A stretch of 64,000 nt of DNA from a bacterium (GTDB lineage: Bacteria; Patescibacteriota; Patescibacteriia; UBA2196), in contig DAOOOW010000003.1 of the NCBI GenBank assembly GCA_035387885.1, forward strand, positions 3,498 to 67,497, written 5' to 3'. Below the pieces are notes generated by a model, which was not told the DNA's origin, ran no database searches, and saw only the letters and a program-made list of their open reading frames with translations. The first letter of the stretch is position 1. Each line of letters begins with the position of its first letter. A program made the translations under genes and the position numbers. Shown here one piece after another: positions 18,347-59,889 of this stretch.

Positions 18347-19735
18347 ATGAAGAAATCAGACCTTATATTTTCAGCAATTTTAGTCCCTCTAGATTATGTG
18401 ATGACAATCTTGGCGGCTTTGACGGCCTATAGTTTGCGTTATGTTGATTGGGTTAAAGAGATTCGTCCGGTAGCTTTTAATTTGCAGTTTAATCAATATT
18501 TTAACTATGTTTGGCCCATAGCTTTGGGTTGGATAATAATTTTTAGCATTGCTGGATTATATAGAATTTCTGGTTCCAAAAGTTTGTTTGATGAAATAGG
18601 TAAAATATTTTTAGCTTGTTCCACAGCCATGTTGACGGTAATTGTCGGCGCTTTTTTTTCTCGCGAACTTTTTAATTCGCGTTTTATTTTGCTTTTCGCT
18701 TGGGTTTTGGCCATCGTATATGTGGTTTTTGTGCGTTTAATTATTAGGGGTATTCAAAGACTATTATACGGTCAAGGATTGGGCATCAATCGTATAATTT
18801 TAATTGGAGCGGATAATTCGTCAGAAGATATTGCCCAAGAAATTTATCGTAATAAAAAACTTGGTTATCAAATAGTTGCTCGTTTAGAAAATTATAATAA
18901 TAATCAAGAAAAAATCGTATCTCTTTTTAAAACTAAAGGTTTTGAAGAAATTTGGCAGACAGATTCTAACTTGAGTCGCAAAGAAAATGTGGCCTTATTA
19001 GATTTTGCCAATGAACATCATCTGATTTTTAAATATGTGGCGGATTTTTTTGCCACTCAAAGTTTAAAATTTGATATTTATACTTTAGCGGGCATACCAT
19101 TAGTGGAAGTTAAGCGTACGTCTTTAGATGGTTGGGGTAAAATTTTAAAAAGATTATTTGATATAATTTTGTCTGTTTTTTTGTTAATTATTTTTTCACC
19201 AGTTTTTTTGATTTTAGCTTTATTGATAAAAATAGATTCCAGGGGGTCAGTATTTTATGGGGCTAAAAGAATTGGTGCCAATGGTCGTGAAATTAAAATC
19301 TGGAAATTTAGATCCATGATTGTTAATGCAGATAAAATTAAGAAAAAATTATTAGATAAAAACGAAAGAGAAGACGGTCCTTTATTTAAAATGGAAAATG
19401 ATCCGCGAGTAACTCGAGTTGGTAAATTTATTCGTAAATGGAGTTTGGATGAATTGCCCCAATTTTACAATGCTTTTAATGGCAGTATGAGTTTGGTTGG
19501 CCCAAGGCCACACGAACCAGGTGAAGTTAAACAATATAAAACACATCATCAAAAATTATTAAATATTAAACCAGGTATTACAGGTATGGCGCAAGTTTCT
19601 GGTCGTTCAGATTTAGAATTTGAAGAAGAAGTTCGCTTGGATACGTTTTATATTGAAAATTGGTCAATGTGGTTAGATTTAGTTATTTTAATAAAAACCC
19701 CTTTGATTGTTTTTTTGCGTAAGGGTGCTAAATAA
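18347..19735 (+). CDS. polyprenyl-phosphate hexose-1-phosphate transferase (WbaP/WcaJ-type bacterial sugar transferase)
   Basis: N-terminal TM/CoA-binding-like region and a C-terminal bacterial sugar transferase domain (DELPQF...SLVGPRP...GITGMAQV). Confidence 0.85.
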   Translation: MKKSDLIFSAILVPLDYVMTILAALTAYSLRYVDWVKEIRPVAFNLQFNQYFNYVWPIALGWIIIFSIAGLYRISGSKSLFDEIGKIFLACSTAMLTVIVGAFFSRELFNSRFILLFAWVLAIVYVVFVRLIIRGIQRLLYGQGLGINRIILIGADNSSEDIAQEIYRNKKLGYQIVARLENYNNNQEKIVSLFKTKGFEEIWQTDSNLSRKENVALLDFANEHHLIFKYVADFFATQSLKFDIYTLAGIPLVEVKRTSLDGWGKILKRLFDIILSVFLLIIFSPVFLILALLIKIDSRGSVFYGAKRIGANGREIKIWKFRSMIVNADKIKKKLLDKNEREDGPLFKMENDPRVTRVGKFIRKWSLDELPQFYNAFNGSMSLVGPRPHEPGEVKQYKTHHQKLLNIKPGITGMAQVSGRSDLEFEEEVRLDTFYIENWSMWLDLVILIKTPLIVFLRKGAK

Positions 19736-19753
19736 AATTAAAATTAGTGTTAA

Positions 19754-19781
19754 AAAAACGGTTTTAAATACCGTTTTTTTG
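19754..19781 (+). terminator. rho-independent terminator
   Basis: aaaacggt-tttaaat-accgtttt followed by a T-run. Confidence 0.6.
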
Positions 19782-19864
19782 CCTTTTGTTTACTCTCTTG
19801 CTAAGATAAAATAAGTTTTCCACAACAATAATCTTAATATTCTGACACTTTTTAACACTACTTT

Positions 19865-20944
19865 ATGAAAGTCGCTCTCATCAACGACATGCTTGTTCAA
19901 GAAGGCGGACAAGAAAGAGTTCTGCGCGCCTTGCAAGAAATATTTCCAGAAAGTCCAACCTTTGTGTTGTTTTATGATGTTAAAAATAAAGAAAGATATT
20001 ATCAAAAAAAAGAAATTGTTTCCAGTTTTTTGCAAAGATTTCCTCAAATAGAAACCAGATATCAGTGGATGTTGCCCTTAATGTCCACGGCTATTGAATC
20101 TTTAGATTTAAGAGAATATGATTTAATTATTTCTTCAAGCTCTTCTTTTGCTAAAGGAGTTTTGGTAAAACCTGAAGCTAAACATATTTGTTATTGTCAT
20201 ACGCCGACGAGATTTTTATGGTCAGAGTGGCATGAATATATTGGCGATTTGCGCTATCCTAAATTTATTAAAAAAATATTGCCATTTTATTTATCACAAT
20301 TACGCAGTTGGGATTATAATGCAGCTCAAAGAGTAGATTATTTTTTAGCTAATTCCAAAACCGTAGCCGATAGAATAAAAAAATATTATAATCAAGATTC
20401 CGCCATAATTTTTCCACCAGTAGATACTGAAAAATATTTTATTGCCGAGCCTAAAAATTATTATTTAATTGGCGGTAGGCTTGTGCCTTACAAAAGATAC
20501 GACTTAGCTGTCAAAGCTTTTAATAAGTTAAACATACCTTTAAAAATTTTTGGCCTAGGATCAGAATATGCTTATTTAAAATCTATTGCTAAAAATAATA
20601 TTGAATTTTTGGGTGAAGTTTCTGAAAACGAAAAAATTCGCCTTTATAGCGAAGCTCTTGCTTTTCTAAATCCCGGTGAAGAAGATTTTGGTATAACTAT
20701 GATTGAATCTTTAGCTTCTGGTCGACCAGTCATTGCCTATAATAAAGGCGGGGCAAAAGAAACAATTAAAGCAGGGGAGACTGGAGTTTTTTTTAATCAC
20801 CAAACCTGGGAAAGTTTGGCTAATACCATTATTCATTTTCAACCAGAAAAATTTAATAGCCAACAAATTAAACTTCACGCCGAACAGTTTAATAAAAAAA
20901 GATTTAAAAATGAAATGAAATCTTTTCTTGACAAGATTATTTAA
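19865..20944 (+). CDS. GT4 family glycosyltransferase
   Basis: C-terminal EDFGITMIESLASGRPVIA...GETG motif (GT-B, GT4). Confidence 0.8.
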   Translation: MKVALINDMLVQEGGQERVLRALQEIFPESPTFVLFYDVKNKERYYQKKEIVSSFLQRFPQIETRYQWMLPLMSTAIESLDLREYDLIISSSSSFAKGVLVKPEAKHICYCHTPTRFLWSEWHEYIGDLRYPKFIKKILPFYLSQLRSWDYNAAQRVDYFLANSKTVADRIKKYYNQDSAIIFPPVDTEKYFIAEPKNYYLIGGRLVPYKRYDLAVKAFNKLNIPLKIFGLGSEYAYLKSIAKNNIEFLGEVSENEKIRLYSEALAFLNPGEEDFGITMIESLASGRPVIAYNKGGAKETIKAGETGVFFNHQTWESLANTIIHFQPEKFNSQQIKLHAEQFNKKRFKNEMKSFLDKII

Positions 20945-20956: not shown

Positions 20957-21403
20957 TCACCTCTCGGCTTTATCAATAAAAAGCACTCCGTCTAAATGAT
21001 CAATTTCGTGTTGAAAAACCCTAGCCAGTAAATCCTTGGCTTTTATTTTTTGCTTTTTTGCTTCTAAATTTAAAAATTCTACTTCCACTCCATAATGTCT
21101 TTTAACCAACATAAAAATATCTGGCAAAGACAAACAACCTTCTTCGCCAATTTTTTTACGCCAAGATTTTTTTAAAATTTTAGGATTAATAAAAGCCATC
21201 ACCCCATCTTCAGAATTAACCACAATTAAGCGGATGTTTTTGCCAACCTGTGGCGCGGCCAAACCCACGCCATCTTTTTCTAACATGGTTTTGGCCATAT
21301 CTTTGACCAATTTTTTAAAATCTGCACGCAAAATCTCTTCATGTTTTATTTCACGAGATTTTTTTCTCAAAATTGGATTGGGGTGAGTGATTATTTTTAA
21401 CAT
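20957..21403 (-). CDS. def: peptide deformylase
   Basis: GLAAPQVG, EGCLS and HEIDHLDG motifs. Confidence 0.9.
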   Translation of the reverse strand: MLKIITHPNPILRKKSREIKHEEILRADFKKLVKDMAKTMLEKDGVGLAAPQVGKNIRLIVVNSEDGVMAFINPKILKKSWRKKIGEEGCLSLPDIFMLVKRHYGVEVEFLNLEAKKQKIKAKDLLARVFQHEIDHLDGVLFIDKAER

Positions 21404-21408
21404 GTCCG

Positions 21409-21539
21409 TAGTTTATCCCGAGCGATTAGTCGAGGGATCTCATTTAGAATTAAAAGTGATTTGTAATTAATGTATTTTTTATGCAGAACACGGGATCCCT
21501 CGGCTCATAACGACCAAAAAAGTCGCTCGGGATAAACTA
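21409..21539. repeat. MITE-like element with perfect 17-bp terminal inverted repeats (tagtttatcccgagcga / tcgctcgggataaacta) and an inner IR cgagggatc/gatccctcg
   Basis: Seen directly. 131 bp lying between the priA stop and the def start. Confidence 0.55.
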
Positions 21540-21545
21540 AAAAAA

Positions 21546-23471
21546 TTAATTTATTTTCTCAGGATTTATATCTAGCATAACATTTTTTGGCAGATTATTC
21601 AAAATTTTATCCAAAGTAATATCTAATGGAATTTTGGCAATCAAATTAAATTTAAAGTTTTTGTTTTGATGAGTATCTGGCAATGGTCCAAGAAGTTCTA
21701 TTTTTTCATCAATATTTTTAATAAATTCCGATATTTTTTTTAAAGAATTTTTTACTAATAATTCTTTTTTATCAGTGGCTATAAATTTAACCAATTGCGA
21801 AAATGGTGGATAATTAAAGTCTTGTCTAGTTTGCAATTCAGAATTATAAAATATTTCTGGCTTATTTTCTTTAATACTTTGGATGACTAAATTTTCTGGT
21901 ATATTAGTTTGTAAAACAAAATCAGCGTTATTATGAGCCGAAAAAATATTATAAAACAGCTGATAAGCCTTTTCCTCGGCTCGAAAATCACCAATATTTA
22001 ACAATTGATCAAAATTAATAAAAGCAATCAAAGCAAATTCCTTTAAATCTATTTTATTAATAACAAATCTGGTGCCAATAATTATCTGGTAATCAGCTGT
22101 TGTTTTGTGTTCCAACTTATCCAACTCTAAAATCTTGGCTTCTGGCAAAAGTTTTTGTAATTCACTTTTAACTTTTTGTGTACCCGCGCCCTTAAAATTT
22201 ATATTAATCCCGGAACATTTTGGACAAAATGGTGACATGTCTTCATGGTATTTACACCAAGAACAAACCAATTGCTTTTTTTTATTTTCATAAGCCAAAT
22301 TATTAGCACATTTTGGACATTTAAAAACATATTCACAATCTTGACAATTGACTAATTTAGCAAAACCAATACGATTATGAAACAAAAATATTTTCTGCTT
22401 ATTATTTAGTTTTTCTTTTATATTTGCTAATAATTTATCAGAAATGGGATTATAATTGCCACCCTGTCTTTCATTTTTTAAATTGACTATGCTGACAACT
22501 GCCTTTGGCCCAATGTTGCCACCTTTTTTGTCATCCTCGCGGAAGCGAGAACCCAGAAATTTTATTTTATTTGCAAATTTTTTTTTCTGGATTCCAGCTT
22601 TCGCTGGAATGACAGCCAAATTGTAAGTTTCTAAATTTGGTGCTGTCGTAGTCAAAACTAATTCCGCTCCAAAATTTTCCGCTAGCCATTCTGCCACATC
22701 TCTGGCGTCAAATCTTGGATTTGCTTCAGATTGTTTGTGATTCCAACTCTCGGCGTTTAAAATTATAAGATGTTTTAAATTAACAAACGGTAAAAAAACA
22801 GCAATTTTTGTCCCGATAATAATTTTATTTTTATTATTTAAAACATTTTGCCAAGTCTGGAAATAATCTGATTTTTTAATTTGACTATGAACAATAGCCA
22901 CATCTTTTTCTTTTACAGAACAATTGATTATTATTTTTTTAATTAAAGAAATTTCTGGTATTAAAATTAAAATTTGTTCTTTATTTTTTAAAGCCAATTT
23001 TATTTTTTCTTTAATTAAATTTTCTACTTCTGAAATATCCCGATACCATAATAATTGTGCTTTCTTTTTATTGTTTTTAATTTTTATATTTTTTTTCTGA
23101 TTTCCCTGCCTCGCCAGCAGGCAGGTGCTGGCGTATTTTGAATTTTTTTTAGGTAGATTCGGTACTAATGTTTTGGCTAAGCCAGTTAAAGAGCTGCCGG
23201 TTGATTGAGCTATAAATTTTATTAATTCAATTTGTTTGGCATTAATAATTGGTAATAGAGTAATAATTTTTATAATTTTTTTTAATTTAAAATGATAAAT
23301 TGGTTTTTTATTTTCTAAACCAATTATTAAACCATTAATTTTTTTATGCCCAAAATCTATAGCTACAATTTGGCCCAAAGAAATTACATTTTCCAATTCT
23401 AAAGGCACGGTATAGGAAAAAAAATCCAAACTGGCTGGTAATTTTAAAAGTGGAATAATTTGTGCTATCAT
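21546..23471 (-). CDS. priA: primosomal protein N' (PriA) homolog with degenerate helicase motifs
   Basis: PriA Cys-rich zinc region CQDCEYVFKCPKCAN...CSWC...CPKCSG. ILILIPEISL aligns to VMVPEIGL and IIGTKIAVFLPF to IGTRSALFTPF. Walker A is replaced by YRDISEVENLI and DEEHD by NAESWN. Confidence 0.8.
   Translation of the reverse strand: MIAQIIPLLKLPASLDFFSYTVPLELENVISLGQIVAIDFGHKKINGLIIGLENKKPIYHFKLKKIIKIITLLPIINAKQIELIKFIAQSTGSSLTGLAKTLVPNLPKKNSKYASTCLLARQGNQKKNIKIKNNKKKAQLLWYRDISEVENLIKEKIKLALKNKEQILILIPEISLIKKIIINCSVKEKDVAIVHSQIKKSDYFQTWQNVLNNKNKIIIGTKIAVFLPFVNLKHLIILNAESWNHKQSEANPRFDARDVAEWLAENFGAELVLTTTAPNLETYNLAVIPAKAGIQKKKFANKIKFLGSRFREDDKKGGNIGPKAVVSIVNLKNERQGGNYNPISDKLLANIKEKLNNKQKIFLFHNRIGFAKLVNCQDCEYVFKCPKCANNLAYENKKKQLVCSWCKYHEDMSPFCPKCSGININFKGAGTQKVKSELQKLLPEAKILELDKLEHKTTADYQIIIGTRFVINKIDLKEFALIAFINFDQLLNIGDFRAEEKAYQLFYNIFSAHNNADFVLQTNIPENLVIQSIKENKPEIFYNSELQTRQDFNYPPFSQLVKFIATDKKELLVKNSLKKISEFIKNIDEKIELLGPLPDTHQNKNFKFNLIAKIPLDITLDKILNNLPKNVMLDINPEKIN
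22530..22613. repeat. 84-bp palindromic element (gtcatcc family) inserted in-frame in priA
   Basis: Arms gtcatcctcgcggaagcgagaacccagaaa and tttctggattccagctttcgctggaatgac. Translates to ...IPAKAGIQKKKFANKIKFLGSRFREDDKKGG... Confidence 0.6.
23105..23125. repeat. family A palindromic mini-element (inverted copy) in-frame in priA
   Basis: cctgcctcgccagcaggcagg. The extended 33-bp match to 1246-1278 is in reverse orientation. Translates to TCLLARQGNQ. Confidence 0.65.
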
Positions 23472-23772
23472 AAAATTATCTTATCGTGTTTGTTGGTTTA
23501 ATGGCTCTGCCTGCCCCGCATCTGCGGTGGCCTTGAACCATTTTGTTCCTTCAGTAAAACTCGTTTATTACTTTGAGGCATTAAGGTTCAAAGTAGAGCT
23601 TTGAATCAACGTTGAGGTGGTTATGCTTTGCCGATAGGCGTTATTTACTATTCCAATTTTAACATTTTACAGCTAACTTGTATAATGGTATAATATAAAC
23701 AATTCTTAATTATTAATTTTGAATTTTGAATGTCATGGTTTATTTTTATTAAAAATTAAAAATTATAATTAT

Positions 23773-24789
23773 ATGCCTACAAAAAAACCCATCCGCCTAG
23801 CTATTAATGGTTTTGGTCGTATTGGCCGAGCCGCTTTTAAAATCGCTTTGGAAAACCTCAAGTTTCAAGTGGTGGCTATTAATGATCTAACAGATAATGC
23901 CACTTTGGCCCATTTATTAAAATATGATTCTGTCTATGGTGTTTATAATCACGAGATTAAAAGTGATGAGGACAATATTTATGTTGACCAAGTTAAATAT
24001 CCCTCTTTTTCCATAAAAGATTTAGAACAATTATCTTGGCAAGATTTGCAAGTGGACGTGGTTTTAGAATGCACTGGAAAATTTGTTAAAGATAGTGTGG
24101 CTTCTGGTCATATTAAGGCTGGTGCTAAAAAAGTTATTTTATCAGCTCCGTCAAAAGGCACGCCCAAAGCACCAACCTATTTAATCGGTGTTAATGAAGA
24201 TAAATATAAAGGCGAGAGTGTTATTTCCAATGCATCTTGCACCACCAATTGTATTGCCCCAGTGACTAAAGTTATTTTAGATAATTTTGGTATAAAAAAA
24301 GCTTTTCTAAATACTATTCATTCCTATACTGCAGATCAAAATTTGGTTGATGGTCCACATAAAGATTTGCGTCGTGCTCGTAGCGCTGCTTACAATATTA
24401 TACCAACTTCTACTGGCGCGGCTATTGCGGTGACAGAAGTTTTGCCAGAATTAAAAGGTAAATTTGACGGCGTGGCTTTGCGGGTGCCTACAATTTGCGG
24501 TTCTATTTCAGACATTACTTATGTTTTAAAAAAGAAAGCTACCGTTGATAGTGTTAATAAAGCCCTTAAAAAAGCTTCTCTCGCTGCTAAAATGAAAAAT
24601 ATTTTAACAGTTAGTAATGAGCCATTGGTTTCTAGTGATATTATTGGTAATCCAGCTTCTGTAGTTGTGGATTTAGAATCCACCATGATGTTGGGTGAAG
24701 ATTATTTAAAAATTTTAGCTTGGTATGATAATGAATGGGGTTATTCATGTCGCCTTGTTGAAATGGCCGAAGTGGTCATGAAGAAATAG
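23773..24789 (+). CDS. gap: glyceraldehyde-3-phosphate dehydrogenase
   Basis: INGFGRIGR Rossmann motif and SNASCTTNCIAP active site. Start taken at MPTKKP. The track ORF has a spurious 5' extension. Confidence 0.9.
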   Translation: MPTKKPIRLAINGFGRIGRAAFKIALENLKFQVVAINDLTDNATLAHLLKYDSVYGVYNHEIKSDEDNIYVDQVKYPSFSIKDLEQLSWQDLQVDVVLECTGKFVKDSVASGHIKAGAKKVILSAPSKGTPKAPTYLIGVNEDKYKGESVISNASCTTNCIAPVTKVILDNFGIKKAFLNTIHSYTADQNLVDGPHKDLRRARSAAYNIIPTSTGAAIAVTEVLPELKGKFDGVALRVPTICGSISDITYVLKKKATVDSVNKALKKASLAAKMKNILTVSNEPLVSSDIIGNPASVVVDLESTMMLGEDYLKILAWYDNEWGYSCRLVEMAEVVMKK

Positions 24790-25548: not shown

Positions 25549-26736
25549 TTATTCCTGGTAGACTTTTTCCGTCTCTCTCAGCATTTTTTCCAAGCTAAAA
25601 TTTTTTATTTTTTCCAAATTATTGTGGCTGAATTTTTCTGCCAATTTTGGATCATCCAAAATTTTTTCTAAAGCCCTAGTAATTTCTCTGGGTTTTTCTT
25701 TGTTAACTATTAGACCATTAGCATCTTGTTCAACAATTTCTAACATGCCTCCAACAGAGGTGGCCACAACAGGTAATCCAGCAGCCATGGCTTCCATAAC
25801 AGAATAGGAAAAACCTTCTTTAACAGAGGGCAAACAAAAAATATCAAAAGCTTTTAAAAGTTCATAAGCTTTATCAATATTACCAACAAGAAAAAAAACA
25901 TTCTCTAAATTTAATTGCTTAATTTCACGTTCTAGGTTTTTTCTTTGTCCACCTTCACCAATAACTATAAAAATAACTTGTGGATTTTTTTCTTTTAAAA
26001 TTTTGGCTGCTCGAATTAAGTAAATTAGACCTTTGGTGGCATATAAATTGGCAATAGTGCCAATAAGTGGTGAGTAATCCCTAATTTGCCTGCCTGCCGG
26101 CGAGGCAGGTAATCTGTAATTGGTAATTAATGTTTTTCTAGCTTCAGATTTTTCTAAAAAATTTAATTTAGTTAAATCAATACCGTTGTGAATAGTAATA
26201 AATTTATGATGGGGAGCTATTTTGTGATTTAAACCAGTGATTTTATCTAATTCGGAAACACAAATGATTTTATCTTTAAAATGTCCAGATATTCTTTCAG
26301 ACCATTGGTAAAATAATTTTCTACCAAGAGATATTGGTTCGTTAAACACAAAACCATGAACAGTATAAATTATTTTGACTTTTTTACCACTTATCTTTTT
26401 ATAAAGCCAGCCCATAACTGCGCCGGTCGAGCCAATTTTACTGGAATTTAAATGAATAATATCTGGTTGAGATTTTTCAAGTAGCCGATAAATTTCTAAG
26501 CCTGATAAAAAATCATGCCAGAGATTTATTTCTCTGACAACATGTTTAAGTCGCCAAACTTTAAAACCCTTTTGAGACAAACTTTCTAGCCAATCAACAA
26601 CGGGGTGTTCTTTTTTTTCTCCGACCGCAATTTCTATAATATATTTATTAGCAGGTAAATTTTCTGCCAAATCAATAATATATTTTTGGGCGCCACCAAA
26701 TTCACTTTGAGTGACAAGATAGAGAATTTTAATCAT
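25549..26736 (-). CDS. GT4 family glycosyltransferase
   Basis: GT-B N-terminal GGAQ motif and C-terminal EGFSYSVMEAMAAGLPVVAT. In-frame family A element at 26089-26109 (PASPAGRQ). Confidence 0.8.
   Translation of the reverse strand: MIKILYLVTQSEFGGAQKYIIDLAENLPANKYIIEIAVGEKKEHPVVDWLESLSQKGFKVWRLKHVVREINLWHDFLSGLEIYRLLEKSQPDIIHLNSSKIGSTGAVMGWLYKKISGKKVKIIYTVHGFVFNEPISLGRKLFYQWSERISGHFKDKIICVSELDKITGLNHKIAPHHKFITIHNGIDLTKLNFLEKSEARKTLITNYRLPASPAGRQIRDYSPLIGTIANLYATKGLIYLIRAAKILKEKNPQVIFIVIGEGGQRKNLEREIKQLNLENVFFLVGNIDKAYELLKAFDIFCLPSVKEGFSYSVMEAMAAGLPVVATSVGGMLEIVEQDANGLIVNKEKPREITRALEKILDDPKLAEKFSHNNLEKIKNFSLEKMLRETEKVYQE
26089..26109. repeat. family A palindromic mini-element, in-frame in a GT4 gene
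   Basis: cctgcctgccggcgaggcagg, identical to 1257-1277. Confidence 0.7.
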
Positions 26737-28033: not shown

Positions 28034-28462
28034 ATGTTTCAAAAAATCGGCGATCTATTTTTAAAATTATTTTGGCAGCACCTTACAGAAAAAATTCGGC
28101 AATTTTTTATTTATTGTGTTGGTGGCGGATTGGCTTTTATTATTGATATTTTAGGTTTGTATCTTTTGACCGAATACCTGCACGTTTGGTATTTGTTTTC
28201 TGCCACAATGTCTTTTATTCTGGCCGCCATTTTTAACTATCTTTTTCAAAGATTTATCACTTTTCAATCCACTGACAAAAATATTACTCGGCAATTTATT
28301 TTTTTTGTTATTATCGCTGTTATTGGTCTTTTAATTAATAATACTTTACTATATTTATTGGTAGAATTAGCTGGCGTGTGGTATATTTTTGCCAAAACTC
28401 TTGCCGCGGCCATTGTTTTGGTGTGGAATTTTATAGCTAATAAAAAATTTACTTTTAAATAA
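28034..28462 (+). CDS. GtrA-family membrane protein (polysaccharide synthesis/flippase accessory)
   Basis: Four TM segments, a YCVGGG N-terminal motif and a C-terminal WNFIANKKFTF, all typical of PF04138. Confidence 0.7.
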   Translation: MFQKIGDLFLKLFWQHLTEKIRQFFIYCVGGGLAFIIDILGLYLLTEYLHVWYLFSATMSFILAAIFNYLFQRFITFQSTDKNITRQFIFFVIIAVIGLLINNTLLYLLVELAGVWYIFAKTLAAAIVLVWNFIANKKFTFK

Positions 28463-32805: not shown

Positions 32806-32828
32806 AACCAATCAAACAGGAGGAAAAA

Positions 32829-33020
32829 ATGAATTCAGCGAAAATCGTATCAATTAAAGAGCAAACAAGACTGGCTACATTTAAAGCAGAATTGAAAGAT
32901 GAAATCTTCTTTTCTGCCAATGAAGAAGGTTTTGACCGCTTTTTTTCTAGAGTTAGACGTTTGCTAGATAATCAAGAAAGAGAAGAGAGCCGTAGAAAAC
33001 TTCAGGAGTCTGAAGAATAA
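32829..33020 (+). CDS. hypothetical small charged protein (63 aa)
   Basis: AGGAGG RBS 6 nt upstream. GC elevated. Confidence 0.4.
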   Translation: MNSAKIVSIKEQTRLATFKAELKDEIFFSANEEGFDRFFSRVRRLLDNQEREESRRKLQESEE

Positions 33021-33065
33021 AAAGTGAGTATTAAAATAAACACAACAAACAACAGGGGGTAATTT

Positions 33066-33158
33066 ATGTTGACTGCCCAAGAGCTTCTAGAAGAGAGTTC
33101 TGAAATTTTAGAAGGTATTAATGATCCTGAAGAAAGAAGACTTGTGGAACTGTTGTAG
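33066..33158 (+). CDS. hypothetical acidic micro-ORF (30 aa)
   Basis: GGGGGT RBS. MLTAQELLEESSEILEGINDPEERRLVELL. Below the track cutoff. Confidence 0.2.
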   Translation: MLTAQELLEESSEILEGINDPEERRLVELL

Positions 33159-33185
33159 ATAGAAAAAGTCGATATTATATTAAAA

Positions 33186-33320
33186 ATGCGTCTTGACCAT
33201 ATTGAATCTTGGCCGTCTTTTTTAGACAGACTTGAAAGAATTTTAGAGTTTGCTAAATTGCACAGTTGGACTGCCCTTAAGGAGTATGAAACTAATTTGG
33301 CATTAAAAAAGAAAAAATAA
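33186..33320 (+). CDS. hypothetical micro-ORF (44 aa)
   Basis: MRLDHIESWPSFLDRLERILEFAKLHSWTALKEYETNLALKKKK. Weak RBS. Confidence 0.2.
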   Translation: MRLDHIESWPSFLDRLERILEFAKLHSWTALKEYETNLALKKKK

Positions 33321-51018: not shown

Positions 51019-51966
51019 TGTTTTAAAATTTATAGGATTAAAAATCCAATAAAAAAATCCAATAATTGCCGCAGAAAAAACTGTAAATAATTGTAAAATA
51101 CCCAAAGCGGTTGCTTTTTCTGGCGAGAGATTAATTAAGCCAAAAAAGAAAATGAATACCGCTTCGCGCGTTCCCAGACCGTTAAAACTTATTGGCAACA
51201 GATCAGTTGCGTTCGCCACAGCAATCATCGGAATTAAATAAAAAATATTTAATCGCAGTCCCAAAGCTAAACTTAAAAAATAAATTTGTACTAAATAAAC
51301 CAACCAGGCTAAAAAAGTTGCTCCAAATCCTAATAAATAATTTTTATAATTATATTTTTTAAAGTTATCTTTAAAATCCTGTAAATGTATAAAGATATTT
51401 TCGTGATGTTTTTGTGGCACAAAAAAATAAATTAATTTAAGATATATCTTTGTTTTTAAAATGAAATAAAATAAGATAACACAAATTAAAATTATTAAGC
51501 ACAAATAAATGATTTCACTAAAAAATATTTGAATAAAAATTAAAAAACCAATTAAAATTAAAAAAATAAGGAAAAGAAAATCAAAAATTCTATCAATTAT
51601 AATGGTAACTAAAGATTTATTGATAGAATGGCCATCGTTTTGTAAATAAAATATCTTAACAATTTCTCCTATTTTACCCGGGGTTGCTAGACTTAAAAAA
51701 GATGCCACTGAATAGAATGAAAAAGATTTTTTAAACGAATATTCTATTTCTTGTTTTTTCATCAACATTTTCCAACGCCAAGCTTTAAAACCTAATAATA
51801 AAAAAGTCAAAAAAAATACAGGCACCAGGTACCAATAATTTACTTTTTTAAAAATATTAAAAAGAATTTTTACATCAACTAAATAAAAAATAATAAATAA
51901 AAAAATTAAACAACCTATTATGGGGAGTAAAATATTTTTTATTTTTTTTTTAATTTTAATTTTCAC
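51001..51966 (-). CDS. flippase-like / lysylphosphatidylglycerol-synthase-TM-region family membrane protein (UPF0104)
   Basis: KVNYWYLVPVFFLTFLLLGFKAWRWKML signature. Eight TM segments. Confidence 0.6.
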   Translation of the reverse strand: MKIKIKKKIKNILLPIIGCLIFLFIIFYLVDVKILFNIFKKVNYWYLVPVFFLTFLLLGFKAWRWKMLMKKQEIEYSFKKSFSFYSVASFLSLATPGKIGEIVKIFYLQNDGHSINKSLVTIIIDRIFDFLFLIFLILIGFLIFIQIFFSEIIYLCLIILICVILFYFILKTKIYLKLIYFFVPQKHHENIFIHLQDFKDNFKKYNYKNYLLGFGATFLAWLVYLVQIYFLSLALGLRLNIFYLIPMIAVANATDLLPISFNGLGTREAVFIFFFGLINLSPEKATALGILQLFTVFSAAIIGFFYWIFNPINFKTLSKKV

Positions 51967-53391: not shown

Positions 53392-55290
53392 TTAATAAGT
53401 TTTAGGAGCGTTATTTATTGTTTTTATTGTTTCATTAAAATCTAAACCAACTGTTTCGCAATACCATTGTAATCCATTAGGACGTGGTTTGTTTTCCTCT
53501 TTTACTAATTCCAAAGCCTCTGCGCGTGTTATCAAACCTTCACGAATTTGATTACTACGAAAAGTATCATTTTCAGTAAAACCAGCCATAGTGTAGTAAA
53601 TATAATTATAAAAAGGCGCTGTGCCATCTCCAATTCTCCAAGTGGAATTTGTATCAGGGGCGAGTTCCCAATTATATTCATTTTTTAAAATTTGATTAAT
53701 TTCCTTTTCATTCCATTTGACATAGTTAAATAAATTTAAATAATCATGTGGAAAAATATAACAAGAAATATAAGCCCCGATAGTATCAATCAAAGATGTA
53801 TTTAAATAGCTTGGATTAATCATATATTGTTTTAAATAATGACCAATCATTTTCAATTGATTAAAAAAATTTAATCCATAAAATAACCCTTTTTCTTTGC
53901 CAGGTTTAACACTGGCAAAAAGGGTTTTGAAATTTGTTTTTTCTAAATGATTTTCGCCAAGTATTAATAAATCCAAATTCATCTGCTTTTTAAGTTTATA
54001 AGCATGATAAAAATATTGCTTATCACCAGCCATAAAAAGTGGTACTACACCTAAATCTGGTTTTTTAAGCCAAGCTAAAACATTTTTTCTAATATTCTCG
54101 CGTTTCTTTTTAATATCGGCTGAAATAATTATCTGTTCCACACCCAGTTTAGCACAAAGTTTTGCCTGATTACGTCTGGCTAAGTCAGTTACCATGCCCC
54201 AGTCATAAGAAAAAACTACGGGATTCAATTTTAAAATATTTTTAACATAATGCAAAGCAAAAGAACTATCTCTTCCTCCACTAAAAGCAATTAAACAGTT
54301 GGGTTGTCGTCCAATCACAACTTTTTTTTCTAATTCTTGTTTCATAAGTTCTTCTGGTAAAACACTGTTTTTTTTATAATCTCTACAAAAATTACAAACT
54401 CCTTCACCATCAAATTCAATCCCTGGAAAAGACTCTGGCAAAATACACTTTGAGCACCTCTTAAGGTGTTCATTCAAATCATATTTTAACAAACTAAAAT
54501 CAGGACTTATTTTTTTGTTATTAAAGGGTTGCCCGGATATTTCTAATTCGCCTCTAAAAATAATATCTTTTTTGTTTTGCAAATCTAAATTTATTATTCT
54601 TTTTTCATAAGGTTTAATTTGCTCCAAAGTTTCTCGAACTAAAAAACTATTTTTTTTAATTATTTGTTCTAAAATATATTTTTCTGAGGCAAAAACCATG
54701 ATCTTTCTACTTTTATCAAAACAAATATAAATAGAACCTGTGTTAGTCGTTAATAATAAATAGGGAAGCGAATCAAATAAAATAGCCGTGGAAATCGTGC
54801 CCTCCACCTCTAAAAAAACTTTATCAATGGCTGTTTCAAGATTGTCTCCGGTTATCAGATATTTTTTTAATAAAAATAATACTATTTCAGTGTCCACTTC
54901 ATACATTCTATTTAATTCACCAAATTTCTGCCACAACAAATCAACATTGGTGACAATACCGTTATGCACCCCCACCAAACTATCTTTAACCACTGGTTGA
55001 TTATTAGTATTGTCAGCCAAATCCAAACCATTAGTAGCTAATCGCGTGTGTCCAATTAAACAATTGATATTTTTTAAGGTAAATAATTGTTTATATTTTT
55101 TTTCTTTAAGTAATTTTCTGGCTTTAATTGGTTTTTTATAAACATAAATTTTATCGCTCATTAACGCAATTCCGGAAGCTTCTTTACCGCGAGATTCTGA
55201 TAATTTAAACAACTCGTCAGTTAATTGACGAATTTTTTTATTGGAAATATTACAACCTTGGTGAATTGTTATACCAAAAATTCCACACAT
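53392..55290 (-). CDS. Ntn-glutamine amidotransferase fused to a PP-loop N-acetyl-sugar amidotransferase (asparagine-synthetase-like; WbpG/LfnA-type)
   Basis: MCGIFGI N-terminal nucleophile, a CSKC...CNFC Zn-ribbon, and an SGGRDSS PP-loop. Confidence 0.7.
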   Translation of the reverse strand: MCGIFGITIHQGCNISNKKIRQLTDELFKLSESRGKEASGIALMSDKIYVYKKPIKARKLLKEKKYKQLFTLKNINCLIGHTRLATNGLDLADNTNNQPVVKDSLVGVHNGIVTNVDLLWQKFGELNRMYEVDTEIVLFLLKKYLITGDNLETAIDKVFLEVEGTISTAILFDSLPYLLLTTNTGSIYICFDKSRKIMVFASEKYILEQIIKKNSFLVRETLEQIKPYEKRIINLDLQNKKDIIFRGELEISGQPFNNKKISPDFSLLKYDLNEHLKRCSKCILPESFPGIEFDGEGVCNFCRDYKKNSVLPEELMKQELEKKVVIGRQPNCLIAFSGGRDSSFALHYVKNILKLNPVVFSYDWGMVTDLARRNQAKLCAKLGVEQIIISADIKKKRENIRKNVLAWLKKPDLGVVPLFMAGDKQYFYHAYKLKKQMNLDLLILGENHLEKTNFKTLFASVKPGKEKGLFYGLNFFNQLKMIGHYLKQYMINPSYLNTSLIDTIGAYISCYIFPHDYLNLFNYVKWNEKEINQILKNEYNWELAPDTNSTWRIGDGTAPFYNYIYYTMAGFTENDTFRSNQIREGLITRAEALELVKEENKPRPNGLQWYCETVGLDFNETIKTINNAPKTY

Positions 55291-56221: not shown

Positions 56222-57117
56222 AACATATTGACATATGAAAAATACTAAAATTCTTTTAATTGTGCCACCAAACAGTCTGGAAGAACGTTATGGCAAGCTT
56301 AAATGATTTTGGTAAAAACCGCCAAATGTGTGTGCACATTACCCTGTTCTTGTCACAAAACTTTTGGCAGAAGTTATCGTTTTATGAGCACCGCTCGAGT
56401 AATTGAGGAAATAAAATATTTAATTAAAAATTATCAAATTGATGGCTTGCATTTTTATGACGACACTTTAACCGTTAATAAGCCACGGATTATTGAGCTG
56501 TGCAACCAAATGATTGAAGAAAAAATTAATTTGCCTTGGGCTTGTTTTACTCGAGTTGATTGTGTGGATGAAGAAATTTTAAAAAAAATGGCCGAGGCTA
56601 ATTGTTATCAAATTTTTTATGGGGTTGAAGCTGGCAATCAAAGAATGCTTGATGTGATGAACAAGGGGATTACTATTGAACAAATAAAAAAAGCTTTTGC
56701 TTTAACGAGAAAATATAAAATTGAAGCTCTGGCTAGTTTTATTATTGGCGTACCCACCGAAACTCTTGAAGACACTAAAGAATCTTTAAAATTTGCCAAA
56801 GAAATTAAAGCAGATTTTGCTCATTGGGAAATTTATACTCCGCATCCCGGCACTATTTATATAATATTGCTATTGAGCATGGGGATCTTTTGACCAAGGA
56901 TTTAAATAAATACAGCCCTTGGAGCGATGAACCAGTTTATGCGGCTCATGGCCGCACGGTTGAAGAATTAAAGAAAACCAAAGAACTTGTTTATCGTTCA
57001 TTTTATATGCGCCCACTTTTTATTTTAAAAAGATTGCGCAACCTTCTTCGTCTACCACCGGGAAGAATTTTAAAATTAATTCATAGTGGCTTAGTAATGA
57101 CCTTTAGTAAAAATTAA
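56222..57117 (+). pseudogene. decayed B12-binding radical SAM paralog (internal deletion, damaged Cys motif, frameshift)
   Basis: MKNTKILLIVPP start, then a stop after about 23 codons. The B12 domain is absent. CTLPCSC is CxxxCxC instead of CxxxCxxC. A frame switch near 56865 joins YTPHPGT to LYNIAIEHGDLL...YRSFYMRPLFILKRL, which matches the intact paralog at 51974..53386 (ORF end) to (ORF start). Confidence 0.65.
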
Positions 57118-57126: not shown

Positions 57127-57160
57127 AAAAACCGTTCCGCAGTCGCGAAACGGTTTTTGG
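57127..57160. terminator. bidirectional rho-independent terminator
   Basis: aaaccgtt...aacggttt with an A-run 5' and a T-run 3'. Confidence 0.6.
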
Positions 57161-57163: not shown

Positions 57164-57673
57164 TTATTTCAAATGCGCTAAAATTTCTTTGTTAAAACAT
57201 ATCTTTCGAAACCATAGAAAATAATTCCATAAAAAAATATGAATTCCAGTTGGCAATGGCGACACCAACGGCACCCGTTGATTATCGCAATCCAAAGGAT
57301 CAATTCCAAGGATGTGTAACCAGTTAATCAAGAGACAACACGCACCGAGCAATTGATCCGCCTGCATTATCACGATACCTGTAAACGTTAAAAGAAAAAA
57401 TCCTGGCAGTGAATGAAAAAAATTAACTTTGGCTGGATCAAGCTTGCCCAAAGTAATTTTTCCTTGCTTCAGACCCTGCCAAATTTCTCTGCGTCGTGCT
57501 TTGGCTTTTTTGCCAAGATAATGATCAACGTCAATAAAAACTCCACTGAACATTATCAGACAAAATCCTATTATTGCCAATGCCCACCGATCTTCAGTGA
57601 CACGCACACTAAAATAATATATTGCCGCTGAAAATGTCGGCAAAAAATGCAATACGCCTAAATGATAAATCAT
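57164..57673 (-). CDS. membrane protein, possibly DUF457/YdjM-like metal-dependent membrane hydrolase
   Basis: Four to five TM segments and an FIDVDHYL motif. GC about 40%. Confidence 0.3.
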   Translation of the reverse strand: MIYHLGVLHFLPTFSAAIYYFSVRVTEDRWALAIIGFCLIMFSGVFIDVDHYLGKKAKARRREIWQGLKQGKITLGKLDPAKVNFFHSLPGFFLLTFTGIVIMQADQLLGACCLLINWLHILGIDPLDCDNQRVPLVSPLPTGIHIFLWNYFLWFRKICFNKEILAHLK

Positions 57674-57698
57674 CCCTAACCTCCAAATTTTTAAACTG

Positions 57699-58358
57699 TT
57701 ATTTTTTCTCCTGCATTTTCTTTATCTCTGCAGCTAATCGATTCTTAAAACTATTCAACCTGTCCTGTAAAACACTAACATCAACACCCTTTGTCTTGGC
57801 TTCGCCAGCAGTTTCTTTAATTTCTGTCTTTATTTCTGCTAACGCTATTCGTGCCGCCCTTATTCTAGCATTTCTATTGTTTATTAGCTCGTAACCAATA
57901 ATGGTTACAGTTGCTTTTTTGTTTGCATATCTATTAGTGACCTTACGGGCTTCCATGCTACCGGTTACACAGATATCTATCTCATTACCAGAAATACCAC
58001 TGCCAACATCGCAGGCTAAAAAAATAATAGAATACCCATTTCTCTCATAACCATCAATAGTAAAAATCTTGCCCAGAGCAATAACTTTGGGATCAACCGC
58101 TGCCGAAACATAACTTCCTAAATAATACCCTTGTAAAGTACGTAAAGGTATTCCCCGGCGATCAAATCCGCCACCTTCTCTTTTTGCTTCTTCTTCTGTT
58201 TTATATCCTTCTGGTGGCGGTGGCCAATAACCTGTTGTGACCACATCTTTAATAACTATTCTTTCACTTTCATCATACAACTCATACTGAAAATCTTGGG
58301 CTACTACAACCGTAGTAACGATAAATGCTAATAACACAATTATTTTCCATTTACCCAT
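57699..58358 (-). CDS. secreted 3D-domain protein (MltA-like / YuiC-type cell-wall binding)
   Basis: Signal peptide. AAVDPKVIALGKIFTIDGY...ACDVGSGISGNEIDI matches the 3D domain consensus. GGAGG RBS. Confidence 0.65.
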   Translation of the reverse strand: MGKWKIIVLLAFIVTTVVVAQDFQYELYDESERIVIKDVVTTGYWPPPPEGYKTEEEAKREGGGFDRRGIPLRTLQGYYLGSYVSAAVDPKVIALGKIFTIDGYERNGYSIIFLACDVGSGISGNEIDICVTGSMEARKVTNRYANKKATVTIIGYELINNRNARIRAARIALAEIKTEIKETAGEAKTKGVDVSVLQDRLNSFKNRLAAEIKKMQEKK

Positions 58359-58509
58359 CTTGTCCTCCAGCTGTTTATATTTTTAATAATAATTTTTTCT
58401 TGAATATTCCAGCATATATTATCTATTAAAAAAAGTCAAGGAAACAAAAATAGACAGGTTTTAAACTTGTCTCTACCATCATACATTATTTATACCCCAT
58501 TATATAATT

Positions 58510-59889
58510 TTACTGTCCGCCTCCACTCAACACCGTTTTAATAGTCTTTAGAACAATAGATAAATCTAAAAGCATTGATCTGTTTTTAATATAATACAAA
58601 TCATATTGTAATTTTTCTAAGGCATCTGCTTCGCTTGAGCCGTAAGGAAAATTAATTTGTGCCCAACCAGTAAGCCCAGGTTTAATCAGTAATCTTTCGT
58701 TATAATAAGGAATTTTATTTTCTAGTTTTTCCACAAATTCTGGCCGCTCTGGCCGTGGCCCAATAAAACTCATTTCGCCACGCAAGATATTAATTAATTG
58801 AGGAATTTCATCAATTCGTGTTTTTCTAAAAAATTTACCACTTTTAGTAACTCGGGGGTCATTTTTAGTGGCCCACTGCGGTCCGTTAACTTCTGCATTT
58901 CTATGCATGGTGCGAATTTTAATAGCTAAAAATTTTTTACCAAGCTTGCCAGTTCTGGTTTGCATAAATAAAAAAGGTCCATGACTATTTAATTTAACAA
59001 TTAAATATAACAACGGTAAAAAAGGAATAGCCACAATTAAAATTATGAGAGCCAAAATAAGATCTAGACTTCTTTTACCTATTTCATAAACAGTTTTTTG
59101 ACTTTCTTTTAAATTTTCTAAAAACCAAATTTGCCCAATAGAATTAACCGGAATTTTACCAGTAAATTTTTCGATAAAACTTGGTAAATCAAAAAAATAT
59201 ATTTTTAAAGGAATACATTCATACAAACTATTGACTAATTCGGGATTGTGATGAGGATTTAAAGCTGTGATGATGGTTTTAATTTTTTTAATTTTTACTA
59301 AACCAGGCAAAGAATGTGGCGGGTTTAGAATTTCTATATCTAAAATTTTTTCCAGATCCATGTTTGTTCCACCTTCATTAATAATGCCCACAACTTTTAA
59401 GCCCAATTGCGGATTATCATTAATTTCTCTGGCCAAAGACAAAGTTTCTTGATTTAAGCCAATAATTAAAACATTATTTTGCCAAGGTTTAATTTTGACT
59501 AATAAATTAAAAATTTGTCGCCAAGCAAGAAACAAGATAGTTAAAAGCGCGAATTCCAGTAATAAATTGGTTTTAGGAGTAATACCTGGTCTGATAACAT
59601 AGAAAAAAGCCATGGAGACTCCTGCGCACCAAGCCAAACTTTTCATTAAAATAGTATAAAAAATTAAATTAGTTCTAGCAATTTGTAAACTGTAGATACC
59701 AGAGATGTAAAAAATAAGCATCCAAATGACAAAAATAAAACTAAAGGGCCAAAAATGTTGGGCCCATCTTTCTTCTATTTCTAAACTCTGATAACGAATT
59801 AACAGAGTTAAATAAAGCGAAAGATATAAAATACCAAGATCACCTAAAATCAAAATTACTTTTTTTATTTTAGTGAGAATATCAGACAT
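58510..59889 (-). CDS. polyprenyl-phosphate hexose-1-phosphate transferase (second WbaP/WcaJ-type paralog)
   Basis: C-terminal sugar transferase domain DEIPQLINILRGEMSFIGPRP...GLTGWAQI. Confidence 0.85.
   Translation of the reverse strand: MSDILTKIKKVILILGDLGILYLSLYLTLLIRYQSLEIEERWAQHFWPFSFIFVIWMLIFYISGIYSLQIARTNLIFYTILMKSLAWCAGVSMAFFYVIRPGITPKTNLLLEFALLTILFLAWRQIFNLLVKIKPWQNNVLIIGLNQETLSLAREINDNPQLGLKVVGIINEGGTNMDLEKILDIEILNPPHSLPGLVKIKKIKTIITALNPHHNPELVNSLYECIPLKIYFFDLPSFIEKFTGKIPVNSIGQIWFLENLKESQKTVYEIGKRSLDLILALIILIVAIPFLPLLYLIVKLNSHGPFLFMQTRTGKLGKKFLAIKIRTMHRNAEVNGPQWATKNDPRVTKSGKFFRKTRIDEIPQLINILRGEMSFIGPRPERPEFVEKLENKIPYYNERLLIKPGLTGWAQINFPYGSSEADALEKLQYDLYYIKNRSMLLDLSIVLKTIKTVLSGGGQ

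Follow-up and report, generated by a model that had tools for sequence, protein, structure and literature searches.

Gene content and organization of the locus

We analyzed a 64-kb stretch of DNA (contig DAOOOW010000003.1, positions 3,498 to 67,497; here called the window), with about 30% G+C across its whole length, and found that it holds a surface-glycan locus of a bacterium of the Patescibacteria, or candidate phyla radiation (CPR), built from at least two modules and not from one bracketed unit. As a whole, the cluster belongs to a well-known general type of glycan gene cluster. Within it, the gene for a family 2 glycosyltransferase (GT2) with the sequence profile of a polyprenyl-phosphate sugar synthase is paired with one for a B12-binding radical S-adenosylmethionine (SAM) protein of 470 amino acids (aa), here called rSAM470, and this pairing, which recurs across bacterial and archaeal phyla, is an uncharacterized variant with a small core. 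Surface glycans are the main interface of episymbiotic CPR cells with their hosts. Identical window proteins occur on the 73-kb metagenome contig ena:ERZ27257431:k141_831755 and in two Logan assemblies, and for several of them the nearest named relatives belong to Patescibacteria, Candidatus Kuenenbacteria and Buchananbacteria included.

Pfam and NCBIfam profile scans of the window's open reading frames (ORFs) of at least 100 aa gave most of the features in Table 1. The original prediction for this DNA had described a single 41-kb locus, bracketed by two inverted WbaP-type initiators and containing at least 11 family 4 glycosyltransferases (GT4) and two GT2. Both initiators are indeed present, one on each strand, and both pass the TIGR03025 cut-off of 295.55 bits (409.7 for no. 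1 and 387.4 for no. 2), but neither reaches that of the WbaP subfamily TIGR03022 (327.2 and 226.4 against 403 bits). They are only 28% identical to each other; an inverted duplication was rejected on this ground, and for the same reason the region is not one 41-kb unit. Genes for peptide deformylase (def), PriA and glyceraldehyde-3-phosphate dehydrogenase (gap) occupy 20957-24789, inside the supposed bracket, and therefore cut initiator no. 1 and its GT4 off from the main cluster, and the second initiator belongs to a conserved cassette. Between the two initiators we count 10 GT4 (all in Table 1) and a single GT2, at 55294; the second GT2, at 9705, lies upstream of the bracket.

The rest of the predicted inventory was recovered in place by the profile scans, namely the GtrA, Wzx and LPG_synthase_TM proteins, three methyltransferases, a short-chain dehydrogenase/reductase (SDR), an NAD-dependent epimerase/dehydratase and an amidotransferase, together with four intact B12-binding radical SAM proteins, one SPASM radical SAM protein and one decayed copy. 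Nucleotide-sugar genes are as scarce as had been stated, with one epimerase/dehydratase and one SDR only. Two membrane proteins needed qualification: the GT-C-like protein exists as a polytopic protein, but its label is tentative, the PMT_2 match being sub-threshold, and the Wzy_C-TPR fusion, placed just past the bracket, exists but is part of the conserved cassette rather than outside it.

We divide the cluster into Module A (about 25.5-46.2 kb), which comprises nine GT4, GtrA, the SDR, two methyltransferases, the epimerase/dehydratase, radical SAM families 1 and 2 and Wzx, and Module B (about 46.2-62.2 kb), which is the conserved cassette including initiator no. 2 and the Wzy_C-TPR gene.

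Table 1. Features of the glycan locus in window coordinates, with profile scores in bits and positions of the radical SAM cysteine motifs
Feature	Position	Strand	Evidence
Large polyprenyl-phosphate hexose-1-P transferase (initiator) no. 1, WcaJ/WbaP-like	18347-19735	+	Bac_transf 225.9; CoA_binding_3
GT4 paired with initiator no. 1	19865-20944	+	Glycos_transf_1 92
GT4, left edge of main assembly module	25549-26736	-	Glycos_transf_1 140.3
GT4	26793-28022	+	Glycos_transf_1 142.4
GtrA-family small membrane protein	28034-28462	+	GtrA_DPMS_TM 81.4; 4 hydrophobic segments
GT4, ending 7 nt before radical SAM gene	28477-29640	+	Glycos_transf_1 140.3
B12-binding radical SAM family 1, 483 aa	29648-31099	+	B12-binding 62.4; Radical_SAM 71.2; CPHRCTFC at residue 189
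GT4	31666-32805	+	Glycos_transf_1 162
GT4-type	33671-34729	+	Glycos_transf_1 70.9
GT4-type	34733-36013	+	Glycos_transf_1 152
Classical SDR	36016-36753	+	adh_short 120.6; no equivalog reached
GT4	36796-37917	+	Glycos_transf_1 132
Class I SAM methyltransferase	37921-38616	+	Methyltransf_11 65.1
Class I SAM methyltransferase	38620-39234	+	Methyltransf_11 60.7
GT4, first of GT4-radical SAM-GT4 triad	39237-40397	+	Glycos_transf_1 75.3
B12-binding radical SAM family 2, 460 aa	40405-41787	+	Radical_SAM 102.1; B12-binding 33.7; CPFNCTYC at residue 212
GT4, 381 aa, start overlapping stop of 40405 gene by 4 nt	41784-42929	+	Glycos_transf_1 149.6; gene call of 381 aa on the source contig
NAD-dependent sugar epimerase/dehydratase	43792-44763	+	Epimerase 172.5; best sub-threshold dTDP-glucose 4,6-dehydratase, GalE
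Wzx-type (MOP) flippase	44848-46170	+	Polysacc_synt 67.1
Small SAM methyltransferase, 150 aa	46193-46645	+	Methyltransf_11 41
Radical SAM protein with C-terminal SPASM	46666-47796	+	Radical_SAM 80.8; SPASM 50.3
B12-binding radical SAM family 3, 489 aa	47801-49270	-	Radical_SAM 87; B12-binding 65.7; CPYHCTFC at residue 262
Polytopic membrane protein, 572 aa, C-terminal soluble domain, candidate GT-C-type transferase	49300-51018	+	About 10 hydrophobic segments
MprF-type flippase-like membrane protein	51001-51966	-	LPG_synthase_TM (PF03706) 163.3 against 33.4
B12-binding radical SAM family 4 (rSAM470), 470 aa	51974-53386	-	B12-binding 108.1; Radical_SAM 107.2; CPYKCLFC at residue 210
Fusion of Ntn-type glutamine amidotransferase and WbuX-like PP-loop N-acetyl-sugar amidotransferase	53392-55290	-	GATase_6
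GT2, polyprenyl-phosphate sugar synthase type (DPMS/ArnC/GtrB/AglJ-like), 288 aa	55294-56160	-	Glycos_transf_2 105.1
Pseudogene of fifth B12-binding radical SAM protein, divergent from GT2	56238-57108	+	Comparison with intact 475-aa ortholog in L051
169-aa protein with hydrophobic segments and 3D-domain protein (two genes)	57164-58358	-	3D domain 32
Large polyprenyl-phosphate hexose-1-P transferase (initiator) no. 2, cassette head	58510-59889	-	Bac_transf 217; CoA_binding_3
Fusion of Wzy_C (O-antigen ligase/polymerase/PglL-type) membrane domain and TPR	59990-62206	+	Wzy_C 69.7; TPR families

The GT2-rSAM470 pair in other genomes

With rSAM470 as query, a search at E<=1e-20 returned 5714 relatives. 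The top 120, which are 59-74% identical, have sources labeled Patescibacteria, Spirochaetota, Nanoarchaeota and Deltaproteobacteria; when one genome per species was scanned, 328 species had relatives. Of the 80 best loci (50-67% identity), many are from Patescibacteria and many from anammox Brocadia, among them the complete genome of Ca. Brocadia pituitae, and these 80 also include loci from Anaerolineae/Chloroflexota, Nitrospirota, Omnitrophota, Methanosarcinales and Altiarchaeota. From Patescibacteria to Brocadia/Planctomycetota and archaea, the family keeps a steady length of about 470 aa at 50-74% identity.

We surveyed the neighbors of rSAM470 in 83 loci (related loci are given below by L numbers) by de novo clustering of all flanking ORFs and profile searches. 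A homolog of the window's GT2 was found in 72 of the 83, lying within 3 kb in 70, with a median gap of 144 nucleotides (nt). When the count was confined to the 44 loci flanked by 5 kb or more of sequence on each side, and to genes within 5 kb of rSAM470, GT2 was present in 43 of 44. The other recurrent neighbors are an MprF-type flippase-like protein (14 of 44), a phosphoglycosyl transferase, or initiator (12 of 44), a SPASM radical SAM protein (10 of 44), a nitroreductase-family protein (8 of 44), a polysaccharide deacetylase with Polysacc_deac_1 and DUF3473 domains (7 of 44) and an amidotransferase (2 of 44), and in 24 of 44 a GT-C-like membrane protein is no more than 10 kb away. Among all 83 loci, SPASM genes occur at no more than 5 kb in 18, and the family of the window's 572-aa membrane protein recurs in 24. 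A search of the accessible literature found no paper on B12-binding radical SAM proteins in CPR glycan loci or on the GT2-rSAM470 pair.

In Patescibacteria, the pair is part of a longer cassette that starts with an initiator, GT2, a tailoring set (a deacetylase; a nitroreductase, methyltransferase and deacetylase; or an amidotransferase) and rSAM470, continues, sometimes after a second B12-binding radical SAM gene, with the flippase-like protein, a SPASM radical SAM protein and a methyltransferase, and ends with a convergent membrane protein of 540-610 aa, a GT4 and another B12-binding radical SAM gene. The order seen in the window (initiator, GT2, amidotransferase, radical SAM, flippase, methyltransferase and a convergent membrane protein of 540-580 aa) is repeated in L007 and L008. 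Orthologs of the amidotransferase hold the same position at 49-50% identity in L004, L007, L008 and L020, those of the flippase-like protein reach 50-58% identity in L007, L008 and L012, and the SPASM protein has a 74% ortholog in L051. For the 150-aa methyltransferase we found a 54% ortholog in L006, a DPANN locus, and a 151-aa counterpart in L090.

Orthologs of initiator no. 2 (48-58% identity) flank the GT2-rSAM470 pair in L012, L013, L014, L017, L022, L025, L026 and L084, and initiator no. 1 is only about 30% identical to those cassette initiators. The Wzy_C-TPR gene is divergent from initiator no. 2 in the window; the same pairing occurs in L025, L055 and L057 and, interrupted by one to a few small ORFs, in L012, L022, L061 and L063, with 49% identity to the L022 ortholog. 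Because initiator no. 2 and the Wzy_C-TPR gene flank the cassette in many loci, both are members of one conserved module; the product of the Wzy_C-TPR gene may act as polymerase, ligase or PglL-type O-oligosaccharyltransferase.

The Brocadia loci show a different arrangement, in which GT2, rSAM470 and a methyltransferase stand beside a protein of 820-900 aa with PA14 and PMT_2 (GT-C) domains (L041, L047, L053 and others, with L049 from the complete Ca. Brocadia pituitae genome). The gene families, their order and the conservation of these pairings across phyla are direct observations.

Some further features of individual loci were seen. A nitroreductase-family protein of about 218 aa and a 250-aa methyltransferase are frequent additions between GT2 and rSAM470 in Patescibacteria, as in L013, L014, L025, L026, L051, L060-L062 and others. 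In L007, L008 and L012 the initiator directly adjoins GT2, instead of being separated from it by genes such as the window's 3D-domain protein, which is of a cell-wall lytic type. Locus L006, from a metagenome-assembled genome labeled Nanoarchaeota, carries a full cassette with a Bac_transf fragment, GT2 (52%), deacetylase, rSAM470 (60%), flippase-like protein, SPASM radical SAM protein, methyltransferases, a 583-aa membrane protein (37%), a 140-aa methyltransferase (54%) and a second B12-binding radical SAM gene, and is either a CPR-DPANN transfer or a mis-binned contig. A plasmid search with rSAM470 found only paralogs of 35% identity. One of these, in L092 (plasmid pDCAR1 of Solidesulfovibrio carbinolicus DSM 3852, 66-83 kb), is full-length and lies directly downstream of a glycosyltransferase in a cluster of glycosyltransferase, epimerase and acyltransferase genes with at least four annotated radical SAM genes; this cultured sulfate reducer is a possible experimental handle.

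Classification and proposed function of the Module B proteins

The GT2, amidotransferase, rSAM470 and flippase-like genes form a tight operon with gaps of 3, 5 and 7 nt. In the GT2, a GT-A domain with YDAD at about residues 88-91 is followed by a C-terminal hydrophobic region (210-274) with about two transmembrane (TM) helices. Its top NCBIfam matches, all sub-threshold, are AglJ, PgfS, ArnC, PpgS and a dolichyl-phosphate hexose transferase, and its nearest PDB entries are the Pyrococcus dolichyl-phosphate mannose synthase (DPMS) 5mlz (2.5e-18), ArnC 9hwj (4.4e-14) and GtrB 5ekp (1.7e-10). The amidotransferase has an MCGIFG N-terminus, a stretch rich in Cys that fits a zinc ribbon and an SGGRDS PP-loop at residue 337, and matches TIGR03573 over 335 of 344 profile positions at 136.7 bits, below the cut-off of 203.2. 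The putative flippase passes TIGR00374 (90.6 against 43.2 bits) and gave no PDB match in sequence and profile searches. The topology of the 572-aa protein, with about 10 TM segments and a C-terminal soluble domain, fits GT-C.

All four intact B12-binding, or class B, radical SAM proteins carry the CxxxCxxC motif, score 71-107 bits for PF04055 against a gathering score of 29.5, and exceed the cut-off of 32.1 bits for the PF02310 B12-binding domain (Table 1). They are mutually 27-30% identical and therefore old paralogs, not recent duplicates. None of the six radical SAM sequences of the window reaches any curated NCBIfam family cut-off. The best sub-threshold model for all four is HpnJ (TIGR03471; 153.6, 198.2, 196.5 and 243.9 bits against 577.6), followed by BchE, which is high for two of the four, PhpK-type, ApyD and others. 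An alignment-based AlphaFold (AF2) model of rSAM470 (pLDDT 92.6) has an N-terminal Rossmann-like domain of alternating strands and helices, and its best PDB match both by fold (TM-score 0.74-0.77) and by sequence (E 9.4e-40) is AprD4, ahead of the cobalamin enzymes TsrM, MgmA, OxsB, CysS and TokK.

We propose, with a probability of roughly 0.55, that the core of Module B is an Arn/Gtr-like side branch in which an amino sugar linked to polyprenyl phosphate would be radically edited before export. The membrane-anchored GT2, of DPMS/ArnC/GtrB type, would act at the cytoplasmic face and charge polyprenyl phosphate with an N-acetyl-hexosamine. The glutamine-dependent PP-loop amidotransferase would then convert its acetamido to an acetamidino group, because WbuX/PseA-type enzymes are known to do so, and relatives would use a polysaccharide deacetylase at this step instead, with or without the nitroreductase and methyltransferase. 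Next, rSAM470 would perform a radical reaction on the lipid-linked sugar, the MprF-type flippase-like protein would carry the product across the membrane, and the polytopic GT-C-like protein would transfer it to an acceptor outside. This acceptor may be the glycan begun by the adjoining initiator and handled by the Wzy_C-TPR protein; the initiator, Wzx and Wzy_C-TPR would build and deliver the main chain, and the radical SAM enzymes of Module A, translationally coupled to glycosyltransferases, would act on the growing lipid-linked oligosaccharide. In this scheme we infer which lipid serves as carrier, what the substrate is, in which order the steps occur and what chemistry each radical SAM enzyme performs.

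The proposal follows known logic. In the Arn pathway (ArnC-ArnD-ArnE/F-ArnT, with ArnD in the polysaccharide deacetylase family), in Gtr systems and in the mycobacterial PpgS route, a further parallel, a membrane GT2 loads one sugar on polyprenyl phosphate, and after an edit at the lipid level and flipping, a GT-C protein transfers it outside. Relatives of the window cassette even carry a Polysacc_deac_1 gene in the position of ArnD. Unlike Arn and Gtr, however, the window cassette adds a B12-binding radical SAM step, has an MprF-type flippase-like protein in place of ArnE/F or GtrA and an amidotransferase in place of the deacetylase, and offers only a candidate GT-C protein.

Several observations weigh against this side-branch proposal. 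The GT2 stays below every curated cut-off, with AglJ best at 99.5 against 325 bits. For the 572-aa protein, PMT_2 scores 21.9 bits, below the gathering score of 26.1, hhalign against PMT_2 proteins gives 47% probability (E 1.9e-4), sequence and profile searches found no PDB match, and the single-sequence AlphaFold model (pLDDT 44.4) is too poor for use. Cobalamin binding is predicted from the domain match, and no reaction can be assigned to radical SAM proteins that exceed no curated cut-off. Flippase-like and GT-C-like genes accompany rSAM470 in about one-third to one-half of loci, and therefore only the GT2-rSAM pair is the universal core. In the window itself, two genes, a terminator-like hairpin and a pseudogene separate initiator no. 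2 from the GT2 operon; this hairpin (57127-57158, 14-bp stem), which follows the 3D/169-aa gene pair and is the strongest in the region, we take as a hint only.

The strongest rival, which we regard as a tentative option well short of even odds, is that all four B12-binding radical SAM proteins are cobalamin-dependent C-methyltransferases like GenK, GenD1 or Fom3 which, together with the SAM-dependent O/N-methyltransferases, would give a heavily methylated glycan. Most characterized class B enzymes are methylases, and all four proteins combine a PF02310 domain with a radical SAM core containing CxxxCxxC; GenK, GenD1, TsrM, TokK, CysS and MgmA share this two-domain architecture with rSAM470, the solved ones are clearly similar in fold, with TsrM, MgmA, CysS and TokK among its structural matches, and many class I methyltransferases are found in the same loci. 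Identity between rSAM470 and these methylases is 16-22%, though, and those known to methylate sugars use soluble aminoglycoside intermediates as substrates and are not encoded in glycan loci next to a polyprenyl-phosphate GT2. The original prediction had suggested C-methylation, which proves to have been an assumption: the top sub-threshold families, HpnJ for all four and BchE for two, are not methylases, nor is AprD4, a sugar 1,2-diol dehydratase and, by both sequence and fold, the solved structure nearest to rSAM470, and methylase models score below HpnJ for rSAM470 (PhpK 172.6, KedN5 93.3 and TsrM-type 63.9 against 243.9 bits). No sequence feature proves methyl transfer, and C-methylation is a possible reading. 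A further point in its favor comes from the anammox bacteria, in which Brocadia carry GT2-rSAM470 and the S-layer O-glycan of Kuenenia is unusually methylated, with methylated N-acetylhexosamine and an unidentified 174-Da residue (PMC5088730).

It is conceivable, although we consider it improbable as a specific claim, that rSAM470 carries out a non-methylating radical rearrangement directly on a polyprenyl-phosphate-linked amino or amidino sugar, either a ring contraction to a carbocyclic cyclitol as in HpnJ or calditol synthase or a deoxygenation as in AprD4, before GT-C transfer to the surface. AprD4 (PDB 6fd2) serves in apramycin biosynthesis as a radical SAM 1,2-diol dehydratase. Its target is paromamine, at the glucosamine ring, and a further likeness is this kind of substrate, a glucosamine ring attached to an aglycone. 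The two proteins are 24% identical, rSAM470 scores 158.6 bits for NF033070 against a cut-off of 500, and the sequence match covers the radical SAM core only (residues 174-400), leaving outside it the N-terminal domain with its strong B12-binding match (108 bits). AprD4 has a similar N-terminal domain, reported without bound cobalamin. If the rearrangement is real, it would be a previously unrecognized editing of sugars by radical chemistry at the level of the carrier lipid, common to CPR bacteria, to archaea including DPANN, and to anammox Planctomycetota, Chloroflexota and Nitrospirota, and might explain residues that have not been identified, the 174-Da unit in the S-layer glycan of anammox bacteria being one example. 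A link between the Brocadia GT2-rSAM470 pair and this Kuenenia residue is possible; Kuenenia itself is outside the loci examined.

A second rival, which is live but disfavored by the DPMS/ArnC-type GT2 and the frequent GT-C partners, holds that Module B makes a membrane aminoglycolipid: a sugar would be placed on a membrane lipid and made cationic as an amine or amidine; after an edit by the radical SAM enzyme, it would be flipped to the outer leaflet and stay there. CPR cells are thought to depend on scavenged lipids, so such a route would amount to head-group remodeling. Its attraction is the trio of synthase, deacetylase and MprF-type flippase found in L006, L022, L025 and L026, which is the layout of HexSDF of Clostridioides difficile (PMC10128005) and GpgSDF of Pseudomonas aeruginosa (PMC12713373), both of which yield a cationic amino-sugar lipid. 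The window shares their flippase-like protein but lacks the deacetylase, which its relatives have, and its synthase is a DPMS/ArnC/GtrB-type GT2, whereas GpgS is a GT4 and HexS is of the monogalactosyldiacylglycerol synthase type; these systems also have neither a radical SAM nor a GT-C partner. A closer match in composition, with the radical SAM step included, is the hopanoid set HpnI-HpnK-HpnJ-HpnL, in which a GT2, a deacetylase and a B12-binding radical SAM enzyme, with a proposed glucosamine ring contraction, act on lipid-linked glucosamine and HpnL is an LPG-synthase-like protein of unknown role (PMC13459092; bioRxiv 10.1101/2025.07.29.667474). HpnJ is moreover the top sub-threshold family, but the window radical SAM proteins reach only 154-244 bits against its 577.6, and the GT2 is not HpnI-like. 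Hopanoid biosynthesis itself was rejected with these scores far under the cut-offs and no hopanoid genes: shc and hpnH are absent from the window and its cassette relatives, where we checked, and hpnI and hpnK from the window ORFs of at least 100 aa. The flippase-like protein also falls far below the cut-offs for HpnL (31.4 against 195.65) and the GlcN-PG flippase (18.6 against 320). GT-C proteins use polyprenyl-phosphate sugars, and GT-C-like proteins accompany the pair in about half of the fully flanked loci and in Brocadia. We thus regard an aminoglycolipid as doubtful. The cassette mirrors the Arn, HexSDF, GpgSDF and hopanoid layouts and is a member of none, the curated cut-offs all failing.

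Finally, sub-threshold matches to ApyD, BzaD and MiaB/RimO might suggest that the radical SAM genes are unrelated passengers among the glycan genes, as enzymes of peptides made on the ribosome and modified after translation (RiPPs), tRNA or cofactors, but this is very improbable and contradicted by synteny, given that no such family reaches its cut-off, no precursor peptide, tRNA or cofactor genes stand alongside, and adjacency to glycosyltransferases is kept for all four families in many independent genomes. The placement of these genes in glycan biosynthesis by the original prediction therefore stands: no tRNA, cofactor or RiPP assignment was obtained, and glycosyltransferase neighbors are retained for family 1 (74 of 80 loci), family 2 (the triad in L087) and rSAM470 (43 of 44). 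The radical SAM genes form a conserved and integral component of the glycan machinery.

The side-branch proposal reduces to a minimal two-gene core, a DPMS-type GT2 and a 470-aa B12-binding radical SAM protein, that is small, portable and testable and could reveal a new sugar modification made on a lipid carrier. CPR organisms are generally thought to lack cobamide synthesis, and the 64-kb window has no transport or cobamide genes; a link between cobamide availability and cell-surface structure becomes testable.

Module A and other features of the window

Module A is a Wzx-dependent assembly line, and Wzx orthologs (42-54% identity) lie at the edge of related cassettes. For radical SAM family 1 we compared 80 metagenome loci with orthologs at 62-73% identity. 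The GT4 at 28477 has its ortholog directly upstream of the radical SAM gene in 74 of these, with a median gap of 23.5 nt, and a GT4 follows directly downstream in 72; the GT4 at 26793 has an ortholog (42% identity) in 71, and a homolog (35% identity) of the GT4 at 25549 lies nearby in 60. Family 2 is almost confined to Patescibacteria. Its overlapping GT4-radical SAM-GT4 triad at 39237-42929, already picked out by the original prediction, recurs in L087 at 72% identity, and of the more distant members, that of L088 has methyltransferase, PMT_2, GT2 and GT4 genes as neighbors and that of L089 a GT9 heptosyltransferase with genes for heptose synthesis. Both radical SAM genes are wedged between glycosyltransferase genes, with 7-nt gaps or a 4-nt overlap, and we infer that their products edit a lipid-linked oligosaccharide between two glycosyl transfers.

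Family 3 orthologs share contigs with families 2 and 4, and each of the four families retains glycan neighbors in other genomes. Glycan loci with several radical SAM genes are a recurrent feature of Patescibacteria and not peculiar to the window: L090 has four B12-binding radical SAM genes, including family 3, in 21 kb amid GT4, methyltransferase, flippase-like, Wzx and AsnB-like genes, and L091 offers a similar context, also with family 3. At L091:5248-6789, a UbiA prenyltransferase and a haloacid dehalogenase (HAD) phosphatase adjoin a PMT_2 GT-C protein, which recalls the mycobacterial route to decaprenyl-phosphoribose/arabinose donors.

The decayed radical SAM gene of Module B retains aa 3-24, 220-389 and 391-474 of its L051 (Kuenenbacteria) ortholog at 88-95% identity, with aa 25-219 deleted, so that the B12 domain is gone and the junction falls inside the Cys motif, and with a frameshift near codon 390. 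The intact counterpart (L051:8-1435, minus strand) occupies the same divergent position upstream of GT2. Identity of the pseudogene to L051 is far above that of its neighbors (GT2 76%, rSAM470 55%), and this suggests either a recent loss or a recent acquisition followed by decay.

A defense system was rejected for this region: the same GT4 proteins that give weak GT4-conflict matches match Glycos_transf_1 much more strongly. A promoter scan of the region did not exceed the shuffled expectation (105 against 95.9 +/- 9.2). The GT4 run of Module A is interrupted by an 865-nt gap (32806-33670) with small ORFs only; one of these, a Cys-rich ORF of 96 aa at 33360-33650 on the minus strand, is also gene-called on the metagenome contig with identical proteins.

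Directly upstream of initiator no. 1 lies a bacterial class A RNase P RNA (17934-18333, plus strand; 131 bits, full-length model match). Farther left, 9705-15125 contains a separate small glycosylation set with a TM-less GT2 (AglJ/PpgS-like), a methyltransferase, a second methyltransferase of 332 aa, a 459-aa membrane protein of about 10 TM segments with no family match and a PMT_2-type GT-C protein on the opposite strand, which by its composition looks like another lipid-phosphate-sugar/GT-C system. At the right end, an ORF of at least 570 codons (62207-64000, plus strand) with a signal-peptide-like start runs off the window and resembles, by eye, a subtilisin-like (S8) protease.

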